DNA from: Verrucomicrobiota bacterium
Lineage (GTDB): Bacteria > Verrucomicrobiota > Verrucomicrobiia > Opitutales > Cerasicoccaceae
Length of the DNA stretch: 64,000 nt
Assembly (NCBI GenBank): GCA_039818205.1
Contig: JBCBUK010000006.1
Coordinates: 32,001 to 96,000, forward strand
Reading direction: 5' to 3'
The notes under the pieces are model-generated. The model was given only the letters and a program-made list of their open reading frames with translations. It was not told where the DNA came from and ran no database searches. Below, piece after piece: positions 41,357 to 51,134 of this stretch. A program made the translations under genes and the position numbers. Every line of letters begins with the position of its first letter. The stretch's first letter is position 1.

Positions 41357-41543
41357 TCTAAATGGAGTACGGGAATATCTGATAGTACAAGATTGTTAGT
41401 TACAAACTAATGTGGCCGATTATCGCGCGTTAGACAGCCAAAGAGTTTTTCGGTTGGTTGCAATCTCTAGGTGAACCTTAACGACAGACGCCGCATTGCC
41501 TCAAAGACTTGACGCGTCCCTGATCAACCTCCAATTAGCGAGC

Positions 41544-42353
41544 ATGGATTTGATCGACAGTCATTGTCACCTGGAGAAGTTTTATCAGCGCGGGATGTTG
41601 GACGATGTTTTGGCGCGGGCGGAGGAAGCTGGGGTGCGCCGCATGATTACGGTGGGCACGTCGCTGGACGACTGGGCGCTTTACCGAGACCTCGCAAAGA
41701 AGTATCCGGGAAAGGTTTATTGGACCGCGGGTTTGCACCCGTGTCATGTCGATGACGGTTGGCGGGATCAAGTCACCGCGCTGTCGACTTATTTTTCCGA
41801 CACGCCATCGCCCGTGGCCTTGGGTGAGATCGGGCTCGACTATTTTCACCTGCCGAAGTTTCCCGATGAGGCCGCGGAGTTGAAGAAGCACCAGGCGAAT
41901 GCGTTTCGCACGCAGTTGGACTTGGCGTTTCAATTTGATATGCCGGTGATCATTCATTCGCGCAATGCCTTCGACGACACCTTGGCGATGCTCAAGGAGG
42001 CAAAATTCCCTGGCGAGCGCGTGGTGTTCCATTGTTTTGCGGAAGGCGCTGAAGAAATGAAGCGACTGAACGAGTATGGCGGTCGCGGCTCATTCACGGG
42101 CGTCGCTACCTACAAGAGCGCGGAGAATGTTCGCGAGGCAGTTAAGGAGCAGGGGCCTGAGCGTGCCATGGTCGAAACCGATGCGCCCTATCTGGCACCC
42201 GTTCCGCATCGCGGTAAGGAATGCGAACCCGCGCACGTGTACCTGACGACGAACCAATGCGCGCAGGTTTTAGGAATGAATTCCGAGGCCTTCGCCGCCC
42301 AGGCGACTGCAAATACCGAGGCGTTTTTCGGTCTCGATAAGCAAGGTGACTAG
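41544..42353 (+). CDS. tatD: TatD-family DNase
   Basis: IDSHCHL, GLHP, GEIGLDY, IIHSR, FHCF, ETDAPYLAP. Confidence 0.95.
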   Translation: MDLIDSHCHLEKFYQRGMLDDVLARAEEAGVRRMITVGTSLDDWALYRDLAKKYPGKVYWTAGLHPCHVDDGWRDQVTALSTYFSDTPSPVALGEIGLDYFHLPKFPDEAAELKKHQANAFRTQLDLAFQFDMPVIIHSRNAFDDTLAMLKEAKFPGERVVFHCFAEGAEEMKRLNEYGGRGSFTGVATYKSAENVREAVKEQGPERAMVETDAPYLAPVPHRGKECEPAHVYLTTNQCAQVLGMNSEAFAAQATANTEAFFGLDKQGD

Positions 42354-42447
42354 ATCGCCCCGTGGGTGATTCCAGGGTTGAGAAATCGCGGGAAATTTCT
42401 CTAGATTGAACGATTGGTTTAATTTTTTGAAAGAGTTGCCGGGTAAA

Positions 42448-43320
42448 ATGAGCACCGAATCCACCACCGAGTCCGCCAAGGACAGCGTATTGATTGCCGC
42501 GATGTATCGCTTCTTCGATTTCCCAGATTTCGAGGAGTGGATTCCGCGTATCCAGGCTGTGTGCAACACCGGAAAGTTGCGCGGCATGTTGCTGATGGCG
42601 ACCGAAGGGCTCAATGGCACCATCGCTGGCCCGGAGAAAGGCATCCGCGAACTCATTGAGTTTCTGCAAAGCGAGCCGCGTATTAACGGCATGGAGGTCA
42701 AATATTCACGTTCTGAGTTTAACCCCTTTAAGCGCGACATCGTGCGCATCCGCCGGAAGAAAGAAATCGTTACCATGGGGGTCCCCGGGATCGATCCATT
42801 AACTCAAGCCGGTACTTACGTGAAGCCCGCGGAATGGAACGATCTCATTGCCGATCCCGATGTCGTGCTGATCGATGTTCGCAACGACTACGAAACCGCG
42901 CTTGGCAAGTTCGAGGGAGCGATCGCGCCCAACACCGAAGACTTCCGCCATTTCCCGGAATGGGTGAAGGAGAATCTCAATCCGGATAAAAACAAGAAGG
43001 TTGCGATGTATTGCACCGGCGGTATCCGGTGTGAGAAGGCGACCGCGCTGATGCGCCAGGAAGGATTTGAAGAAGTCTACCACTTGCATGGCGGCATCTT
43101 GCGCTACCTGGAAGAGACACCGACGGACTCTACGAAATGGGAAGGTGAGTGCTTTGTCTTCGACCACCGGGTATCCGTGGACCACAACCTCGAGCGTGGA
43201 CAATACGAATTACGTTGGGCTTGCGGGCACCCGAAGACCATCGATGGGGACGGCGAAGAATGCCCGATATGTCATTTTCGTGAAGATACCAACGATGATA
43301 AATCAGAGCTGAAATTGTAA
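42448..43320 (+). CDS. trhO: Rhodanese-domain tRNA U34 hydroxylase (YceA/TrhO)
   Basis: EGLNGT, KKEIVTMG, DVRNDYE..G.F.GA, YCTGGIRCEKA, HL.GGIL.YLE, G.CFVFD.R. Confidence 0.9.
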   Translation: MSTESTTESAKDSVLIAAMYRFFDFPDFEEWIPRIQAVCNTGKLRGMLLMATEGLNGTIAGPEKGIRELIEFLQSEPRINGMEVKYSRSEFNPFKRDIVRIRRKKEIVTMGVPGIDPLTQAGTYVKPAEWNDLIADPDVVLIDVRNDYETALGKFEGAIAPNTEDFRHFPEWVKENLNPDKNKKVAMYCTGGIRCEKATALMRQEGFEEVYHLHGGILRYLEETPTDSTKWEGECFVFDHRVSVDHNLERGQYELRWACGHPKTIDGDGEECPICHFREDTNDDKSELKL

Positions 43321-43356: not shown

Positions 43357-43563
43357 ATGTCAGATCAAGCAGGACAAGGTTCGGCCGGCAATGTCATCGC
43401 GGCCCTGTGTAGTTTTTTCTTCCCGGGGCTTGGTCAATTGCTGCAAGGCCGACTTTTTATCGCCATTTTTATGTTCCTTACCGCGACGGTGCTTTGGGTC
43501 ATCTTCATGGGATGGATTATCCACCTGTGGTCGACTCTCGACGCTGCGATGTGGAAACCGTAG
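43357..43563 (+). CDS. Small membrane protein (PGLGQ/TM2-like motif)
   Basis: AALCSFFFPGLGQLLQGR followed by hydrophobic helices. Confidence 0.7.
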   Translation: MSDQAGQGSAGNVIAALCSFFFPGLGQLLQGRLFIAIFMFLTATVLWVIFMGWIIHLWSTLDAAMWKP

Positions 43564-44023
43564 GCGAGGGAGGCTTTCGATAGTGCTCGATCTTTGCCCG
43601 CAGTTGATCATACCGGGTCTGGTCGATGTTACCTTGCTTACGCCGATCTTCGAGTCCGATGAGCATATCGGACTCAGATAGGTGGCACCAGTCCCACGCC
43701 ATCATCTCAAAATTGTACCATCCGGCGGTCTCCCAGGCGATCATCCGCATTTCCTGGATGTCTTCCCGTTGGTAGCCACGCGCGAGCAGCTCCTTGATAT
43801 GTCGACCGTAGTAAGGCGGTTCGTGATCCGTATCCAATACCTCCTCGAGAATGCATTCCCAGGAATCAAGATTGGGTAGTGGCTCAATGCTTGCCTGTTG
43901 TTGCGGAGACCGAGAATCAAACCAAGCCAGCCCATCAAGCAGACGTCCGCTAGACTGAACGTCTTTTAAAAAGCTCTTGGTCAAAAAAACAGGCATTTTG
44001 TCATCATAGATGACAAGCCGCAC
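43517..44023 (-). CDS. Hypothetical Trp-rich protein
   Basis: 168-aa ORF just downstream of the SDR-like gene on the same strand; 47-nt convergent overlap at its 3' end. Confidence 0.55.
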   Translation of the reverse strand: MRLVIYDDKMPVFLTKSFLKDVQSSGRLLDGLAWFDSRSPQQQASIEPLPNLDSWECILEEVLDTDHEPPYYGRHIKELLARGYQREDIQEMRMIAWETAGWYNFEMMAWDWCHLSESDMLIGLEDRRKQGNIDQTRYDQLRAKIEHYRKPPSPTVSTSQRRESTTGG

Positions 44024-44061
44024 CTAGTCCAATAATTCTTCGCCTACGAGCAGGAGGTTGG

Positions 44062-45639
44062 TCAATCCCCGCCAGGTTCCGTCGCAACTTTCTTCACGGC
44101 CTTTTTAGCTGCTTTCTTGGCGGCCTTCTTGGTCGCCTTTTTTGCTGCTTTCTTGGTGGCCTTCTTAGCGGCTTTTTTGGCCGCCTTCTTCGTTGCCTTC
44201 TTAGCGGCCTTTTTGGCCACCTTCTTCTTTGGCTTCGGTGTCTCCGCTGAGACAGCCGATTCCGTAGCAACTGGCTTTGGTTCTGCCGTCTTCTCTGATT
44301 TTACGGATTCAGTGGCAGATTTTTGCGGAGAGGGGTGAGGCTTTTCGGCATCGGAACGTGGCTTGGAATCTCTTCGTGCTGGCGCGGTTTCGGTCGGTTT
44401 CGCTGGTCGCTCATCCGACGGCCGGGTGTCTTGGTCACGCTGCGGAGGACGATCCCCTTGCTGTGCGTTACCCTCGCGTGGTGCACCGTCTTGGGGTGGG
44501 CGTTGACCCTGACCGTCGCGATCGCGACGGTTGCGACCACCGCGGCGGCGGCGACGGCGACGCTTCTTGTTACCATCTCCATCTTCGCCTTGGTTTTGAT
44601 CGCGGCTCTGGTCCCGGTTCTGGTCCCCGTCTTGACGTTGGCGCTGTGGTTGGCGGTCGCCGTCTTTTTCGCGTCGGCCATCTCTTGGCTGCTTCCGATC
44701 ACGCTTGCGCTGGAGGTCCCGTTTGACCTCTTCTTTGCGCTTGTTGATTAAATTGCGAGACTCGGCAAGCATGCGATCGAGCTCATCATCGTCATCATCG
44801 TCGTCCCACTCGTCATCTTCATCGGGCGGCGGTGCATCAAATGGACGCTCCCGCGGCGGTGTTGGGATGGGTTCGGGCTCGACCGGGAAAAATTTGCGCT
44901 CGGGTAGCTGCACGCTATGAGAGGCTTTGACGAGTGGCGCCACACTGGCGGGAATTTTTGGCTCTTCCCGGGTTCCTTGCGGGCGGACCACGATTTCGCT
45001 GAGGCAATTGTTTTCCTTGTAGCGAAGAACGGTCTCCACGGCTTGAGCAAACAAAGGTGCTTCAATCGAGCTTTGTGGTTCCATGACCAGCCGCGATTGC
45101 GGATCTGGTTCGCCCGGGTTATACTCAGGATAGAGCGTACTCACTTTTACGCCCGTGTCTCGAACTTCATCATACAGCTTGCGGGCAAAAAAGTGCAACC
45201 CACCTTGGGTGGCGGCGTTGATAGCGCCGCTCGGCCCATGCCCGGTTCCATTCCAGGCTATGTTGATCACGTAGCCATGGTAGCGAATCAGACTGGGCAG
45301 GGCTAGCCGAGTGAGCACCAGCGGGCACAAGAGCTCCGTTTGCACGGTGTACTCGAGCGAATCCAGTGGCGAGGCTTCGAAACTATCTTCAGCTCGGTGT
45401 TGGGCCGCATTGACCAGGACCGAGACCATTGGGTCTCGCCCGTTGATCTGCTCCCAGGCACTTTCAAGTTCGGCCCGTGCAGTCAGGTCACAGGTGACTT
45501 GAACAAAATCAGGATGCTCAAAGGGGCATTGGTTAAAGTCTTGGGCGAAGCCGTAAACACGGAAGCCGAGGTCGATGAGTTTCCGGGCGATCTGCAGGCC
45601 TATGCCGCGTTCAGCGCCGGTGACGATTGCTATGTCCAT
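44062..45639 (-). CDS. SDR-fold protein (catalytic residues degenerate) fused to a long disordered acidic/Arg-rich/histone-H1-like tail
   Basis: TGAERGIG Rossmann motif, CDL, VLVNAA, GVKVSTLYP; YxxxK position reads NAATQ; C-terminal low-complexity region. Confidence 0.85.
   Translation of the reverse strand: MDIAIVTGAERGIGLQIARKLIDLGFRVYGFAQDFNQCPFEHPDFVQVTCDLTARAELESAWEQINGRDPMVSVLVNAAQHRAEDSFEASPLDSLEYTVQTELLCPLVLTRLALPSLIRYHGYVINIAWNGTGHGPSGAINAATQGGLHFFARKLYDEVRDTGVKVSTLYPEYNPGEPDPQSRLVMEPQSSIEAPLFAQAVETVLRYKENNCLSEIVVRPQGTREEPKIPASVAPLVKASHSVQLPERKFFPVEPEPIPTPPRERPFDAPPPDEDDEWDDDDDDDELDRMLAESRNLINKRKEEVKRDLQRKRDRKQPRDGRREKDGDRQPQRQRQDGDQNRDQSRDQNQGEDGDGNKKRRRRRRRGGRNRRDRDGQGQRPPQDGAPREGNAQQGDRPPQRDQDTRPSDERPAKPTETAPARRDSKPRSDAEKPHPSPQKSATESVKSEKTAEPKPVATESAVSAETPKPKKKVAKKAAKKATKKAAKKAAKKATKKAAKKATKKAAKKAAKKAVKKVATEPGGD
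44083..44226 (-). repeat. 12 tandem 12-nt coding repeats encoding KK(A/V)(A/T/V)
   Basis: KKVA KKAA KKAT KKAA KKAA KKAT KKAA KKAT KKAA KKAA KKAV KKVA. Confidence 0.9.
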
Positions 45640-46646
45640 ATCTGTAGTTTGTCCGCGGGGATAAATCGGGTCAGCTCAGTGCGTGCGAAATCAATCAGCA
45701 TTTCGCGTTCATTGTGCGGATGGGTGACAACTCCGTTCTCCCGGTGGTAGAAGCGGTAGGCCAAATCCGTATCGGGCCGATTTTTTTTCAAGCGGTTAAA
45801 GTATTCGGTATTGAGTCGGAATACACCCAAACTCACATCAACGACGTTGTTTGGAGGGATTCTCGCAAAGGTTTCAGTAAACAGTTCTCGGTAACTAGAC
45901 CGCCAATTAGCGTTGGGCAAGACCGGATCGAAACATAATCGAACGGGCCATCCAGCCTGACTTGCCAGCGAAAGCGCTTTTAACCGTTGGTTTACCGGGG
46001 CTGTATCCTGTTCATAACGCTCGATAATTTCTTGCGGTGACAAGGTCCAGGCCAGGACTGCTCGGGGATGCGGTTCCAGGTCCTGCAGTGCCGCCCAGTT
46101 GCCGCTCTTGGTCCGCATCTCGATGACTAGATCCGGCTGTTGCCGTGCAAATTCAATCCATTCCCGACAGTAGGGAAGGATACGCTCCGAGGCCAACAGG
46201 TCGCTTTCGTAGGAAATCGCCAATTCAAGCGGCTTGCTGGGATTACTTCGTTGGGAGAGGGCACGCTCGGCGGCTTCAAAATAGTCCTCCAGGTTGACGA
46301 ACGCGACGAGGTTGGCCGAGGTATACATCCCTTGGAGGAAGCAATAAGCGCAATTGTAGAGGCAGTTGAGCTGAAGGGTGGTGTAATGGAAGTTGGCCAC
46401 ATCACGTCCTTGCACATATTCGTTGGCAGGATAGAGGAAGTCCTGCTTTTTCCGGGCGAGGATGAGTGCCTTACTCTGCTTTTGACGCTGAAAGTCCTGT
46501 CCGGGGCGGTTGAAAACATCTCGGTAGTCCTCAATGTCAACGCGCTGCGCCGTCGGAAACCGCTGGAGGATCTGTTGGGCAAACGGATAGGCGTTGGCCC
46601 CGCGTTCGACGTAGATTCGGCTAAAGTGTTTGGCGGCCTGGCTCAT
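45630..46646 (-). CDS. Spore-photoproduct-lyase (SplB)-like radical SAM protein
   Basis: NCLYNCAYCFLQG (CxxxCxxC), FVN.ED, SD, E.RTKS, WTLSP...E..T....RL, GWPV...DPV. Confidence 0.85.
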   Translation of the reverse strand: MSQAAKHFSRIYVERGANAYPFAQQILQRFPTAQRVDIEDYRDVFNRPGQDFQRQKQSKALILARKKQDFLYPANEYVQGRDVANFHYTTLQLNCLYNCAYCFLQGMYTSANLVAFVNLEDYFEAAERALSQRSNPSKPLELAISYESDLLASERILPYCREWIEFARQQPDLVIEMRTKSGNWAALQDLEPHPRAVLAWTLSPQEIIERYEQDTAPVNQRLKALSLASQAGWPVRLCFDPVLPNANWRSSYRELFTETFARIPPNNVVDVSLGVFRLNTEYFNRLKKNRPDTDLAYRFYHRENGVVTHPHNEREMLIDFARTELTRFIPADKLQIWT

Positions 46647-47509
46647 TCGACTCCCGGTTTGAGCGCGTCGCGCAAATGTTCCACCAGCGCGTTGCGCTCG
46701 CGTTTGTGGGCAGGCGGCGCAGCGATCACCGCTTCTAGGGCTGTTTGGGCCTCAGTTGTTGGCTGCCCCCGAAGCATAGCGGCGATCAACCAATCGTGTA
46801 CTTGGCTCGATTGAGCATCCGTAAGGCGGCACCGCTCCCGGAGAGCGTCAAAAGCAACCTGCAGTGCCGCATCGAGCCTTGGGCATGCGGTATTCTCCAT
46901 GGAGGCTGCCGCGGCAATGACCAACTCAATCGTCTCCAGTTGGTCCTTCAGGTGCGCTTGCAAGGCAGCTTTGTCGATCGGGCGGCCGTCGAGGTGATCA
47001 CTGACCAGCTTGATGACCTGCGCCCGGTGAATCGGCAGAAAGGCGCGTGCAGCCTCTAGGAAACCGGCCGCTTCCATGTCGACTAGATCAGTTTCGACTA
47101 CTCCTGGCTCAGGTTGAATCACGGGTCGACTATGCGTGCCTAGCGATCCTTCCGGCAATTCATGACGAAACAGAATCTCCGGGATGAATTCGCGTTGAGC
47201 GTCCACCGCACGAACCCGATTGACTAGCACCAACTCACCAATTGCTTGGTCACGATTGCGGCTGCCAGCAAAGCCCAGGTTGACCACGAGCGGCAAGGAT
47301 TGCTGCAGGCTTGCCCGATGAGTCAGAAGAGCCGCTGTCGCGGCTGCTGAGGCCGTCGGGCCCACTCCGGAGACGATCAATCCATAGGCGTCTCCCTGCC
47401 AGCGTTCAAAACGACCGAGATCGTCCATCCGCCGAAGCCCCCACCCGTCAATCAGCGGGCGAGCCTCAATGCTCAGAGCGGTGACGATCCAAATGTCCGG
47501 TTCATTCAT
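46643..47509 (-). CDS. Nucleoside phosphorylase/MTA-SAH nucleosidase-like protein (PNP_UDP_1 fold)
   Basis: TAL..EA, SGVG, N.G.AG, VDMEAAG, K.VSD. Confidence 0.8.
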   Translation of the reverse strand: MNEPDIWIVTALSIEARPLIDGWGLRRMDDLGRFERWQGDAYGLIVSGVGPTASAAATAALLTHRASLQQSLPLVVNLGFAGSRNRDQAIGELVLVNRVRAVDAQREFIPEILFRHELPEGSLGTHSRPVIQPEPGVVETDLVDMEAAGFLEAARAFLPIHRAQVIKLVSDHLDGRPIDKAALQAHLKDQLETIELVIAAAASMENTACPRLDAALQVAFDALRERCRLTDAQSSQVHDWLIAAMLRGQPTTEAQTALEAVIAAPPAHKRERNALVEHLRDALKPGVE

Positions 47510-47742
47510 GATCCTAAATTATGGACTCCTCTCAGTGCACTCATCAAGGTTGCATGTGGTGCATTGTTGGTGGCGATCATTGATGATTCTGCGAAGCGTG
47601 GGGAACGATTGGAATAATATTTCCGGTTTGGTCCTTAGATGGCTCCCATATCAGGTGAATTTTGCAGTGCTGGTGCCTGCGCTAGTCTCTTCCTCAAATT
47701 AAAAACGATTGTAACTAAAAATATCCTAGTTAGGTTAACATT

Positions 47743-48168
47743 ATGAGATTCCTAACACTTTTACTTGGATTAGTACATTTTTGCACCCTTGGCTTTGCCC
47801 AGGACTCGTCGGAACCGAGAGATGGCGACGTCAAAGTTTCGCGAGAACCCGTTGTATCCGTAGAGGATGGAGAAAACGCGCCAAGGCGGGTGATTCGCCA
47901 GCGCGTCGACTCCAAGGAGGTTATTTTGAGTCGCGGAGACAACAGGAATCCCTTGGTGGTCGACGAGAGGCCACCTTTGGTCATCGGCAAACCAGTCGCG
48001 ATCTACAAGAAGACCGAGCTTCCATTGTCCATTGCTGGGTTTGGATTGGGGAAGGGGTCGCGTTTTACGCTGCTAGACGCACAAGGAGACTGGATTCGCG
48101 TGCAAGGAAAAGACCGTTCGGCCTGGATAAACACCAATGACTTTATCATCATCCAAGAATTGGAATAG
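47743..48168 (+). CDS. Exported hypothetical protein with SH3-like C-terminus
   Basis: Signal peptide; G.RFTLLDAQGDWIRV....AWI pattern. Confidence 0.6.
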   Translation: MRFLTLLLGLVHFCTLGFAQDSSEPRDGDVKVSREPVVSVEDGENAPRRVIRQRVDSKEVILSRGDNRNPLVVDERPPLVIGKPVAIYKKTELPLSIAGFGLGKGSRFTLLDAQGDWIRVQGKDRSAWINTNDFIIIQELE

Positions 48169-48317: not shown

Positions 48318-49022
48318 ATGAACTCGGTCATTATATATTCGGGCGGTCTCGATTCCTCCGTCCTGCTCCACCAGCTGCATCAGGCTGGGGGCGAGCTCGC
48401 CGCGATGAGCATTAACTACGGGCAGCGCCATGCCCGCGAAATTGAATGCGCGAAACGCAATTGTAGCCGCTTGGGCATCGAACACCGCGAAGTGGACCTC
48501 CGGCAGATTGCGCCATTGCTTGGTCACAATAGCCTCACCGATGCGAGTGTGGCCGTGCCCAAGGGCCACTACACCGAGGATACGATGAAGGCGACGGTGG
48601 TCCCAAACCGGAATATGATCATGCTGTCGATTGCCACTGGCTGGGCAATTGCGCGCTCGGCCGATTGCGTTGCCTACGCGGCACATTCGGGCGATCACGC
48701 CATTTATCCCGATTGCCGGACTGAGTTTGCGGACGCCCTGGACGCCGCCATTCGCCTGGCGGACTGGAAAGAAGTTTCACTCTACCGACCGTTTGTCGAA
48801 ATGACGAAAGCCGATATCGTGCGCCGGGGGGCCGAGCTCAACGTGCCCTTTGAAGACACTTGGTCCTGCTACGAGGGGGGTGAGCTGCACTGTGGACGCT
48901 GCGGCACCTGCATCGAGCGTCGAGAGGCGTTTTACCTGGCTGGTGTGGACGACCCAACGCGCTATGAAGATGCTGCTCCGTCGGTCGAAGAATTACTAGC
49001 CAACGATTGGAGGCTCTCATGA
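48318..49022 (+). CDS. queC: 7-cyano-7-deazaguanine (preQ0) synthase
   Basis: SGGLDS, YGQRH, VPNRN, YPDCR, TWSCY, CGRCGTC.ER. Confidence 0.96.
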
Positions 49023-49450
49023 TCACCTGCCGCAAAACCTACACCGACGTTCCCTTTGCTCACCGACAGCCAGACCATGATGGCCATTGCCGCTTCGTGC
49101 ACGGCCATAATTGGACAATCACCGTGACCTTTGCATGTCGTGAACGTGATCAGAATGGCTTCGTGATCGACTACGGTAAGCTGGGCTTTCTCAAGGCCTG
49201 GATCGAAGAAAACCTCGATCATGCCTGCGTTTTCCGTGAGGATGACCCGCTGATGGACGCCCTGGTGTCATCGGCGCCGGAAGCCTGGAAGGTCTATGTC
49301 GTCAAGGATTGTTCCAATGAGGGACTGGCAATGCACGTCTTCGACGTCTTCGACCAACTGGTACGGAAAGAGTCCGCCGACCGGGCGTGGGTCGTTTCGG
49401 TGGACATCAAGGAAGACAGTAAAAATGGCGCGTGCTATCAGCCCGACTAG
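49019..49450 (+). CDS. queD: 6-carboxy-5,6,7,8-tetrahydropterin synthase
   Basis: AHR, C..VHGHNW, VIDY, LDH, S.EGLA; ATGA overlap with queC. Confidence 0.9.
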
Positions 49451-49456
49451 GAAAGG

Positions 49457-49954
49457 CTACGCCGAGCGGGCGTTGTGATCTTGCTTTTGCTCAAGCTCCA
49501 CCCGGAGCACTTCCAGCTCTTGTGCTTTGACCATGAGTGCTTCCTCCGACTCTTGGAGGTATAGTTCGCGCTCCTCAAACTCGGCCTTACGCGTATCGAT
49601 GGTTTCTAGGAAAGTGACGTACTCGCGCAAAATTTCAGTGATCCGATGGGTGTCTGCAAGGTCCTCTTTCAGCGCGGCGACTTCGTCCATCATGTGTTGG
49701 ATGGGGCCAGCAGGCTTCAGCGGGTTGCTGGCGTCTTCGTCCTCTTCTTCGGTCAGCAATGACCACGGCGCACCGTCAACGTCGGCATGATCCTGATGGA
49801 GGACACAGATCTCCCAATCCGGGTAACGTTCTTGGAGGTCACGGATGCCAGCGGTGGATTGTGGCTCATCCAATACGTTGTCACCCACTGCTACCCAGAA
49901 CAGATCCTTTTTCTTCGCAGCCTTTACGAATTTTTTGAGCTGAGTTAATGTCAT
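49457..49954 (-). CDS. Hypothetical protein with acidic C-terminal coiled coil
   Basis: 165-aa ORF between queD and queE; E/K/Q-rich heptads. Confidence 0.65.
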   Translation of the reverse strand: MTLTQLKKFVKAAKKKDLFWVAVGDNVLDEPQSTAGIRDLQERYPDWEICVLHQDHADVDGAPWSLLTEEEDEDASNPLKPAGPIQHMMDEVAALKEDLADTHRITEILREYVTFLETIDTRKAEFEERELYLQESEEALMVKAQELEVLRVELEQKQDHNARSA

Positions 49955-50016
49955 GGTTCGGGCGGCGTTAAAGCGTCGGCGACATATTATTTGATTGAGA
50001 TTTTTCCCCCATGTAA

Positions 50017-50030
50017 AGCATATATATGCT
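50017..50030. promoter_or_regulatory. Perfect 14-bp palindrome in the divergent intergenic region before queE
   Basis: AGCATATATATGCT. Confidence 0.45.
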
Positions 50031-50048
50031 CCATTTGGTAAGTTTTGT

Positions 50049-50672
50049 ATGCAATATCCCGTTTCAGAACATTTTGCATCCTTCCAAGGTGAAGGTATGC
50101 ATTTAGGTCGTTCATCCTATTTCATTCGGCTGTTTGGGTGTCCAGTTAAGTGCCCGTGGTGCGATTCTGCTGAAACTTGGCACCCTGATTTCAAGCCAAA
50201 AAGCGTTCCGCGCATGTCGGTAGAGGAATTGGCGACATTAGCAAACGCCGCCCAACCAGAGTTCGTTGTGATCACTGGCGGCGAGCCTGCCATTCATCGT
50301 TTGGAGCCACTGGTAGACGCATTTCACGGGGTCGGATTGCCAGTACACATCGAGACTAGCGGGACGTTTGCCATCCCCGAGAGTATCGATTGGGTAACCG
50401 TCAGCCCAAAGGTCTATCGAGATCCGCTGCCCGAACTCATTGAACGCGCCGACGAACTAAAACTCATTGTCGAGAATCCCGACTCAATAAAATATTGGGA
50501 AGACAAACTGGGGGACGGACTTCTGCGCGCCGATCGACCCGTGTGGCTTCATCCAGAGTGGTCACTGAGGGGTGAATTGAAGACCCTAAAGTTGATAGCC
50601 GATACCGTTAGTGGGCGCGGGGCACCTTTTCGGGCAGGCTGGCAACTGCACAAACTCTACCAGGTCCGGTAG
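50049..50672 (+). CDS. queE: 7-carboxy-7-deazaguanine synthase (radical SAM)
   Basis: F.SFQGEG, FIRLFGCPVKCPWCD, ITGGEP, IETSG, SPK, Q.HK. Confidence 0.93.
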   Translation: MQYPVSEHFASFQGEGMHLGRSSYFIRLFGCPVKCPWCDSAETWHPDFKPKSVPRMSVEELATLANAAQPEFVVITGGEPAIHRLEPLVDAFHGVGLPVHIETSGTFAIPESIDWVTVSPKVYRDPLPELIERADELKLIVENPDSIKYWEDKLGDGLLRADRPVWLHPEWSLRGELKTLKLIADTVSGRGAPFRAGWQLHKLYQVR

Positions 50673-50713
50673 AATTTGGTTAAATTAGGGTCTTTCCCTT
50701 TACGGGATTTTAA

Positions 50714-51085
50714 CTAGGCGAAATAGGGGGGGATTGGCCCTTCGTAGTCGTCTTGTGCATTCTCAGCGGTGAGGGTTGACCGAATGCCGCCGCGTCCGGT
50801 CCAAATCGTCTCAAGCCGCATCCAGCGCGGGTTTAAGAGCCCCCAAAGCTCGTCGAAAATGGCATTTGTCACGGCTTCGTAGAAGATGCCGCGATTGCGA
50901 AAATCCTGGAGATAGAGCTTGTAGGCCTTGAGCTCGACGCAGGATGCGCTGGGAACGTAGGTGAGCGCAATGGTCGCGAAATCGGGATGGCCGGTCTTCG
51001 GGCAAAGCGAGGTAAATTCCTCGGCAATGTGCTGGATGACGTAGTCGCGGCCTGGGTTTGGGTTGGGAAAAGTCTCAATTTCCAT
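50714..51085 (-). CDS. queF: preQ0 reductase, unimodular type
   Basis: EFTSLCPKTGHPDFA, ELK.YKLY, F.E, RGGI. Confidence 0.93.
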   Translation of the reverse strand: MEIETFPNPNPGRDYVIQHIAEEFTSLCPKTGHPDFATIALTYVPSASCVELKAYKLYLQDFRNRGIFYEAVTNAIFDELWGLLNPRWMRLETIWTGRGGIRSTLTAENAQDDYEGPIPPYFA

Positions 51086-51134
51086 GCGCAAGACTAGGTA
51101 CGCTTTCGGCGCGAATGCGAGCGGAAATCCCAGA

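Follow-up and report, generated by a model that had tools for sequence, protein, structure and literature searches.

Our analysis of a 64,000-nucleotide stretch of DNA from a Verrucomicrobiota bacterium of the order Opitutales (GenBank assembly GCA_039818205.1, contig JBCBUK010000006.1, positions 32,001 to 96,000; the whole of this stretch is called the window here, and positions are counted from its first letter) concerns a cassette of three coupled minus-strand genes. [quoted passage not shown] We found that the first two genes form a pair that is widespread and has not been described before; a literature search returned no description of an SPL-like/nucleosidase pair or of the three-gene cassette and, in the literature on SPL homologues, none of the matches listed dealt with this radical SAM family by title or abstract. 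The case for the pair is made by adjacency across phyla, co-occurrence, natural fusions and predicted binding, while its chemistry is read by analogy with known systems that add an adenosyl group to an acceptor and then remove the adenine.

A scan with the radical SAM protein as query, using one genome per species, gave 564 confirmed relatives, and the best 80 loci of the 564 were analysed. They come from Latescibacterota, Marinimicrobia, Opitutales, Gemmatimonadota, Clostridia, Lachnospiraceae, Methylococcaceae, Campylobacterota, Leptospiraceae and others. Named carriers of the radical SAM family include Rubellicoccus peritrichatus and Methylobacter tundripaludum. By tblastn, 60 of the 80 loci have the nucleosidase gene directly upstream of the radical SAM gene (73 had enough upstream DNA), a count to which the clustering of open reading frames (ORFs) adds one locus, L076. 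An SDR gene lies directly downstream in 38 of the 80 (76 with enough downstream DNA), and all three genes occur together in 23 (69 testable). Since the pair is adjacent in 60 loci and the trio is complete in 23, the arrangement is not a chance neighbourhood, and the preliminary description, which had read the coupled genes as a unit from the window alone, is borne out to this extent. All-against-all clustering of 885 ORFs from the 80 loci and the window detected nothing conserved beyond these three genes. The composition of the unit varies with lineage: Marinimicrobia loci consist of the nucleosidase and radical SAM genes, and Methylococcaceae loci of the radical SAM and SDR genes. Among five genomes without an adjacent nucleosidase gene, four have a full-length nucleosidase of the same subfamily elsewhere (E values of 1e-63 to 1e-86), adjoining unrelated genes, with queG nearby in one Leptospiraceae genome. 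Of 301 Verrucomicrobiota genomes sampled, five proved to carry the radical SAM gene and the same five the nucleosidase subfamily, whereas both are missing from two members of the window's own family. This adjacency and genome-by-genome co-occurrence indicate that the pair is sporadic and self-contained, and that it is inherited or transferred together.

The two proteins also occur joined in single chains. The radical SAM family comprises 1051 matches of near-equal length and 113 fused ones, the latter being protein clusters of 599-848 residues, mostly about 640, recovered by a search of longer proteins. In one fusion from a Lachnospiraceae genome (P0172), residues 1-284 match the nucleosidase profile with 99.9% probability and the remainder covers 98% of the radical SAM query, so that the nucleosidase precedes the radical SAM enzyme in the chain. 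For the separate proteins of the window, structure prediction gave a binding score of 0.81, the best of three controls scoring 0.00; the mark for this score is reached by 116 of 157 solved complexes and by 2 of 215 mismatched pairs, counts that are only rough, as alignments of our own were used. The prediction runs share at least 92% of their contacts, with a partner pLDDT (predicted local distance difference test) of at least 88. The predicted interface involves residues 10, 12, 34-58, 210, 244-248 and 291-299 of the radical SAM enzyme and residues 97-98, 107-114, 120-122, 155-161, 204-210, 236-247 and 280-288 of the nucleosidase. It takes in stretches that are conserved in each family (34-58 of the former; 107-114 and the C-terminal domain of the latter), and places the C-terminus of the nucleosidase beside the N-terminus of the radical SAM enzyme, which matches the geometry of the fusions. 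The nucleosidase and the radical SAM enzyme are thus predicted to form a complex. Residues 291-299 of the radical SAM enzyme, which would contact the nucleosidase, appear from the HMMER alignment to lie just before the position of the SPL hairpin that has been proposed to push into DNA, as described in PMC3467042.

In the window, the four minus-strand ORFs of the preliminary description, both of their overlaps and the 38-nt gap that follows them are all present in the ORF list and the junction sequences, and the three families that it had named (PNP/MTAN fold, SplB-like with CxxxCxxC, SDR fold) are recovered as Pfam matches. The features are:

46643..47509, minus strand: nucleosidase gene, 288 aa (ORF list; PNP_UDP_1 match).
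45630..46646, minus strand: SPL-fold radical SAM gene, 338 aa (ORF list; PF20903 match).
44062..45639, minus strand: third gene, 525 aa (ORF list; adh_short match).
44935..45639, minus strand: SDR-like Rossmann domain of the third gene, residues 1-235 (adh_short; alignments; tree).
44062..44934, minus strand: low-complexity charged tail of the third gene, residues 236-525 (composition).
43517..44023, minus strand: ORF4, 168 aa, GTG start (ORF list; without family).
47510..47742, no strand: intergenic region 5' of the operon, divergent from a 141-aa ORF that is followed by queC and queD (ORF map).

The stop codon TGA of the nucleosidase gene and the start codon ATG of the radical SAM gene are merged in an ATGA (46643-46646), where the junction reads ...GAATGAGC..., and the radical SAM gene and the third gene share 10 nt (45630-45639), ATGGACATAG. 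A gap of 38 nt (44024-44061) separates the third gene from ORF4 on the same strand. ORF4 has no Pfam, NCBIfam or PADLOC family and no match in the 80 related loci; since, among 81 genomes of the order, only that of the window was found to have it, it is an orphan outside the conserved unit. The intergenic region holds a promoter-like site at 47547-47518 on the minus strand, and the count of such sites in the region (3, with 2.0 expected) is at chance level.

The radical SAM enzyme belongs to the Pfam family of SPL at the level of the fold (PF20903, 79.5 bits, cut-off 27). With SplB (TIGR04070; Geobacillus thermodenitrificans structures 4FHC-4FHG and 4K9R) it shares the CxxxCxxC motif, present as C95-x3-C99-x2-C102, and the residues that hold the cluster and SAM: C95, C99, C102 and K180 are invariant in 23 sequences, Tyr96 and Lys174 of SPL are kept as Y101 and K180, and Ser195 is conservatively replaced by T201. 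However, it scores only 82.5 bits with the TIGR04070 model, whose equivalog cut-off is 400, and matches the SPL chains of the PDB at E 2.6e-14 with about 23% identity. The positions that SPL uses to return the hydrogen atom are changed: Cys140 aligns to Ile, the clostridial Cys position (76/77) to Asn and Tyr98 to Phe, the roles of the hydrogen-donor Cys (Cys140/141) and of Tyr98 being those given in PMC3467042. No fourth conserved Cys exists among 23 homologues. Of the lesion and DNA contacts that were compared (Arg193, Glu268, Arg273, Lys309 and the hairpin residues Arg304/Tyr305), Arg193 aligns to Ala, the unconserved hairpin tip aligns to Glu/Asn where the alignment is weak, and R277 may stand for Arg273 in a similarly weak region; the C-terminal 40 residues are poorly conserved. 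Unlike SplB, the enzyme is paired with a nucleosidase, and it occurs sporadically in non-sporulating phyla. The family has 24 invariant residues in 23 homologues, and its own invariant positions are largely polar (D149, E176, R178, K180, E212, R221 and R277, plus Y12, Y88 and Y101). The database names of its members are confined to 'DNA photolyase', 'spore photoproduct lyase' and 'SPL family radical SAM protein', its structural neighbours in the Atlas are all PF20903 proteins with SPL-type names only, and members have been interpreted as DNA-repair genes, for example in Nautilia (PMC2628731). Since the hydrogen-return residues of SPL are not kept, and its lesion-binding residues seem not to be, spore photoproduct repair is disfavoured and, judged by its residues, the enzyme is not a spore photoproduct lyase, in agreement with the doubt already raised in the preliminary description.

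The nucleosidase has a PNP_UDP_1 domain (PF01048, 37.1 bits, cut-off 25.1) and falls short of every narrower family. Its best NCBIfam match is futalosine hydrolase (TIGR03664, 43.9 bits), below the membership cut-off of 124.7, and its scores with MTAN models are 23-33 bits against cut-offs of 129-213. The AF2 model (pLDDT 93) combines a PNP-type core with a family-specific C-terminal four-helix domain (residues ~214-283), and its top Foldseek matches are MTAN and futalosine hydrolase, with probability 1.0, TM 0.5-0.66 and 16-21% identity. E15, D144-M145-E146, K167 and D171 are conserved across 20 aligned homologues; we take E15, M145-E146, K167 and D171 to be the equivalents of MTAN Glu12, Met173-Glu174, Arg193 and Asp197. 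The fold and the counterparts of the catalytic Glu12, Met173-Glu174 and Asp197 of MTAN and futalosine hydrolase are therefore present, and from them the protein should hydrolyse a 5'-substituted adenosine. It shares the fold and these catalytic motifs with the 5'-methylthioadenosine/S-adenosylhomocysteine (MTA/SAH) nucleosidase Pfs (TIGR01704), but differs from it in its low identity, in staying under every MTAN cut-off and in the extra C-terminal helical domain, which is predicted to touch the radical SAM enzyme. A part in SAH/MTA recycling in place of LuxS or AhcY was considered and rejected: LuxS was not found in the window genome, but AhcY (SAH hydrolase) and an MTAP-like gene are present, so there is no recycling gap to fill. 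In all, this genome has three PNP-fold genes, including the nucleosidase studied here.

The third protein stands apart from the pair. It matches adh_short over residues 3-172 (Pfam, 79.3 bits) and has the Rossmann fold and glycine-rich motif of classical SDRs, but lacks the full set of features of that class (TGxxxGxG, NNAG, catalytic Ser and Tyr-x-x-x-Lys): the glycine-rich TGAERGIG is kept, NAAQ stands in place of NNAG, and the aligned Ser, Tyr and Lys positions are lost. The term pseudo-SDR, used in the preliminary description, is thus apt, and the polybasic tail noted there is real. This tail (residues 236-525, 290 residues, with 43 K, 38 R, 33 D and 22 E) is made up of a conserved proline-rich linker, an acidic run, a stretch rich in R, Q, D and G, and ten KKA repeats, (A/T)KKA, at 476-512. 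The window copy and 10 relatives have each gained 100-550 such charged, low-complexity residues. Tyr-x-x-x-Lys is kept in none of 11 aligned tailed proteins, which retain the glycine-rich motif and the linker, the motif LPxR..FP.EPEPIPTP being common to most of them. The Opitutales loci L004, L018 and L019 are like the window, with catalytic residues gone and long charged tails added. Outside Opitutales, in contrast, the third protein is a tailless, ordinary SDR; in the cassette SDRs of other phyla S129, Y142 and K146 are invariant in 16 sequences and NNAG is kept. The nearest solved relatives of these catalytic proteins are carbonyl reductases and classical SDRs (3RKR; 2JAH, clavaldehyde dehydrogenase), and they resemble aldehyde and ketone reductases.

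The distribution of the tailed protein is also different from that of the pair. The SDR-like domain was detected in 22 of 81 genomes of the order, in open frames of 336-794 aa. Besides the window's, 21 genomes carry it, and the radical SAM gene is present in six of these (G231, G311, G319, G320, G346 and G366) and was not found in the other 15, of which three have weak SDR matches (29-32% identity) and one, G310, is only 80% complete. One Opitutales genome, G231 (L098 and L099), has both forms, a catalytic 246-aa SDR right after the radical SAM gene and a tailed pseudo-SDR on a separate contig. When 50 SDR rows were placed in a maximum-likelihood tree, the 12 tailed proteins grouped as a single clade (100/99) nested in the cassette SDRs, beside those of Latescibacterota and Gemmatimonadota (99/94), with midpoint rooting only. 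From its residues, then, the third protein of the window is a dead derivative of a cassette SDR and should have no reductase function; our reading is that a reductase lost catalysis, gained a disordered tail and took a role independent of the enzyme pair. That the third gene probably has a role of its own follows from the 15 of 21 relatives that carry the tailed protein without a radical SAM partner. This separate role is likely, and possibly one of nucleic-acid binding, which for the tail is a guess from its composition. The preliminary description had the trio as a single dedicated pathway, with the third protein targeting it to DNA or RNA, and this is not supported; the conservation across phyla that it proposed to test for the trio holds for the nucleosidase-radical SAM pair, but the third gene encodes a catalytic SDR elsewhere and, in this order, is frequently kept without the pair.

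For the chemistry of the pair, we tentatively favour, at somewhat short of an even chance, a transfer of the 5'-deoxyadenosyl group of SAM to an acceptor by the radical SAM enzyme, followed by removal of the adenine by the bound nucleosidase. In this scheme the radical SAM enzyme, within the complex, would add the 5'-deoxyadenosyl group, and the nucleosidase would then cut adenine off the adduct to leave a 5-substituted ribose. Where a catalytic SDR is encoded, the ribose carbonyl would presumably be reduced next, and glycosylation may follow where a GT2 gene is attached; the third gene of this genome would perform no reduction step. Adenosyl transfer is ranked first because the three known systems that combine a radical SAM enzyme with a PNP-fold protein all adenosylate and then remove adenine. 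According to PMC13459092, HpnH adds the 5'-deoxyadenosyl radical to diploptene, HpnG removes the adenine, and MqnE makes the same kind of addition as HpnH; ArsS adenosylates dimethylarsenite (PMC13598754).

The cassette resembles each of these systems and belongs to none. The bacteriohopanepolyol side-chain enzymes HpnH/HpnG(/HpnI) follow the same logic of radical SAM and PNP-fold adenine removal, and their pathway includes the conversion of ribose to a polyol and a GT2 glycosyltransferase (PMC13459092); GT2 genes occur in some cassette loci, and these, together with the catalytic SDR, would fit ribose reduction and glycosylation as in hopanoid side chains. However, HpnH (TIGR03470) is of another radical SAM subfamily and is absent among the matches of the pair, the nucleosidase has no match to HpnG (TIGR03468) at E 0.01 or better, and the pair is predicted to bind and is often fused. 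Many of the carriers belong to taxa, Lachnospiraceae for instance, that are not expected to make hopanoids. The enzymes MqnE (aminofutalosine synthase) and MqnB (futalosine hydrolase) are alike in the radical SAM addition of an adenosyl group followed by an MTAN-fold hydrolase, and MqnB is what the nucleosidase matches best in NCBIfam and one of its top structural matches; but the NCBIfam match is far below cut-off, the neighbourhood holds no other mqn genes, and the radical SAM enzyme is of another subfamily. The arsenosugar pathway (ArsM, ArsS, TIGR04282/TIGR04283) likewise combines radical SAM adenosylation with a PNP-fold gene and glycosyltransferase-like genes in its cluster, but ArsS (TIGR04167) is a different subfamily with a Cys-rich end, and no arsenic gene lies beside the cassette.

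The other PNP-fold genes of the window genome illustrate the rule. One lies in an arsenosugar-type cluster at ~102700-106200 of contig C3 (L081 and beyond), between the gene of a TIGR04282 protein (172 bits, cut-off 134) and that of an ArsM-like methyltransferase whose end is rich in Cys, and near ArsS (TIGR04167, 435 bits, cut-off 300); an MTAP-like phosphorylase belongs to this cluster. The other (C9:150674-151132, L082) best matches HpnG, at 81 bits, below cut-off, and the genome has a clear HpnH elsewhere (C2:561503-562462, 511 bits), which suggests that this bacterium makes extended hopanoids.

Several points weigh against adenosyl transfer. The chemistry is not visible to computation on sequence or structure, and the acceptor is only hypothetical. 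We know of no PF20903 member that transfers an adenosyl group. The nucleosidase scores far under the cut-off of the futalosine hydrolase model. A reduction step is not obligatory, since the SDR is found in only 38 of the 80 loci and no clear SDR orthologue was found in five Marinimicrobia genomes without an adjacent SDR, where the best match (140 bits) is at the level of paralogues. SPL itself, the closest relative of solved structure, acts by abstracting hydrogen (PMC3467042). Moreover, pairing, fusion and predicted binding would be expected equally well if the nucleosidase only removed 5'-deoxyadenosine, and canonical Pfs was not found over the TIGR01704 cut-off in 8 of 10 cassette-bearing genomes tested, which leaves room for this by-product to need an enzyme of its own.

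The genes around the cassette vary. Those flanking it on the same strand include GT2, homocysteine S-methyltransferase, GlgD-like, GGDEF, FolD and esterase genes. The GT2 genes, which overlap the cassette in L071 and L076, match TIGR04283 at 58-70 bits, below its cut-off of 182. Two related loci of uncultured bacteria have a gene for homocysteine S-methyltransferase that runs into the 3' end of the radical SAM gene (L027:5437-6315 and L029:6953-7885, by 10 and 52 nt), the sole link to the methionine cycle that was seen. A MOSC-domain gene directly follows the SDR gene in Latescibacterota and Gemmatimonadota loci (L001:7863-8675 and L006:7836-8690). Two Clostridia radical SAM homologues (L047:76-1644 and L059:5701-6993) have putative N-terminal extensions of ~190 and ~100 residues; the extensions have no Pfam match, no nucleosidase gene lies beside either gene, and the L059 genome has only a weak nucleosidase match (E 2.3e-7).

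In the window, the upstream side of the operon faces a divergent 141-aa ORF (47743-48168, plus strand) that starts with a hydrophobic N-terminus and belongs to no family of Pfam or NCBIfam. Beyond it lie queC (48318-49022, plus) and a queD-like PTPS gene (49007-49450, plus), then a 165-aa acidic ORF without assignment (49457-49954, minus), a queE-like radical SAM gene (49995-50672, plus) and queF (50714-51091, minus), so that the que genes span 48318-51091. Downstream, on the plus strand, are a TatD-family hydrolase (41496-42353) and a protein of UPF0176 plus rhodanese architecture (42406-43320), which we take to be a tRNA U34 hydroxylase of the TrhO type. A search for Rfam families, preQ1 riboswitches included, was negative for the window and for seven loci. 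The four proteins had no match among the anti-phage models of PADLOC 2.0.0, and on this and the housekeeping neighbour genes a defence system was rejected.

The main rival to adenosyl transfer is that the radical SAM enzyme abstracts hydrogen and consumes SAM stoichiometrically, as SPL would lead one to expect from its own hydrogen abstraction (PMC3467042), and that the nucleosidase bound to it is dedicated to hydrolysing 5'-deoxyadenosine, which would lift product inhibition; the catalytic SDR would then act on the product or on 5-deoxyribose. The MTAN-type active site suits this role, pairing, fusion and predicted binding are all explained, and the scarcity of canonical Pfs would fit. We rate it somewhat below adenosyl transfer; against it, every genome has many radical SAM enzymes that use one general clearance route, the window genome has an MTAP-like phosphorylase, and we know of no other radical SAM family with its own fused MTAN for 5'-deoxyadenosine removal. 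The two of ten cassette-bearing genomes in which canonical Pfs exceeds its cut-off, both Campylobacterota, hold it beside the dedicated nucleosidase, which is therefore no stand-in for a missing Pfs there; the distribution of Pfs does not decide between adenosyl transfer and 5'-deoxyadenosine removal. An inverted order of events would have the nucleosidase act first, on MTA, SAH, 5'-deoxyadenosine or another 5'-substituted adenosine, after which the radical SAM enzyme rearranges or cleaves the 5-substituted ribose and the SDR finishes. There is a precedent in MqnB acting before MqnC, the order of the genes (nucleosidase, radical SAM, SDR) and of the fusions is the same, the homocysteine S-methyltransferase overlaps in L027 and L029 would fit, and the invariant polar D149, E176, R178, E212, R221 and R277 would suit a sugar-like ligand. 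This order is improbable all the same, as the window genome already has SAH hydrolase and an MTAP-like enzyme, methionine-cycle neighbours occur in only 2 of 80 loci, and no LuxS-type need is evident.

Adenosyl addition followed by adenine removal was one of two options in the preliminary description and is the one we rank first; the other, repair or modification of an unusual base, fares much worse. Here the radical SAM enzyme would act on a lesion or base in DNA or RNA, to which the tailed third protein would bring it, a notion prompted by the SPL fold, by the basic K/A- and R-rich tail, and by occasional neighbouring genes whose products work on tRNA or DNA (the que genes and TrhO-like gene here, MiaB-like in L004, OGG in L035, RNase HII in L043). 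But SPL's Y98 and R193 are replaced, as is C140 or its clostridial counterpart, the hairpin tip also seems to be lost, and the predicted contact with the nucleosidase would cover the segment aligned beside the DNA hairpin. MTAN-fold enzymes, moreover, act on free nucleosides. With the third protein tailless and ordinary outside the order, and the tailed protein present without the enzymes in 15 of 21 relatives within it, this alternative is very unlikely. Still less credible is queuosine salvage, in which the pair would correspond to QueK (queuosine hydrolase) together with QueL (radical queuine lyase), suggested by the presence of queC, queD, queE and queF within 4 kb of the cassette. An MTAN-type conserved Asp protonates N7, which 7-deazapurines lack, and tubercidin analogues are bound unhydrolysed in MTAN structures. 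PMC11130926, PMC11477304 and bioRxiv 10.1101/2025.10.13.681863 describe QueK as a nucleoside hydrolase and QueL as a radical SAM enzyme, but QueK is of the IunH family and the nucleosidase here is PNP_UDP_1. No que genes lie beside the cassette in eight other fully scanned loci or in the same-strand flanks of 30 further proteins, the one exception being the queG near an unlinked nucleosidase gene in a Leptospiraceae genome. No preQ1 riboswitch was found in the window or the seven loci, and no transporter (QueT/QrtT) lies nearby. The window genome also makes preQ1 itself. Queuosine salvage was set aside for its want of a conserved que context and riboswitch, its other hydrolase family and the N7-dependent mechanism.

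Whichever chemistry applies, the names 'spore photoproduct lyase' and 'DNA photolyase' are wrong for this family on the present evidence. The family is large and extends over many phyla, with Lachnospiraceae of the gut and abundant groups of the sea among its carriers; as its partner is tightly defined too, it offers radical SAM enzymology a clean target. The fullest picture that we would draw, more tentative still than adenosyl transfer itself, is that the SPL-fold enzyme represents a new 5'-deoxyadenosyl-transferring family that acts in an obligate complex with a nucleosidase of its own, to which it is sometimes fused, to make a ribose-derived metabolite or lipid, polyol-tailed and in some lineages glycosylated, in organisms from the ocean to the human gut, and that in Opitutales the associated reductase may have been recycled into a dead, tailed protein. 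If adenosyl transfer is true, the pair would be a fourth, independent origin of the route that adenosylates a substrate and then removes adenine, and a new class of ribose-derived products would be indicated. The dead tailed reductase, for its part, would be a compact example of an enzyme given a new use after the loss of its pathway.

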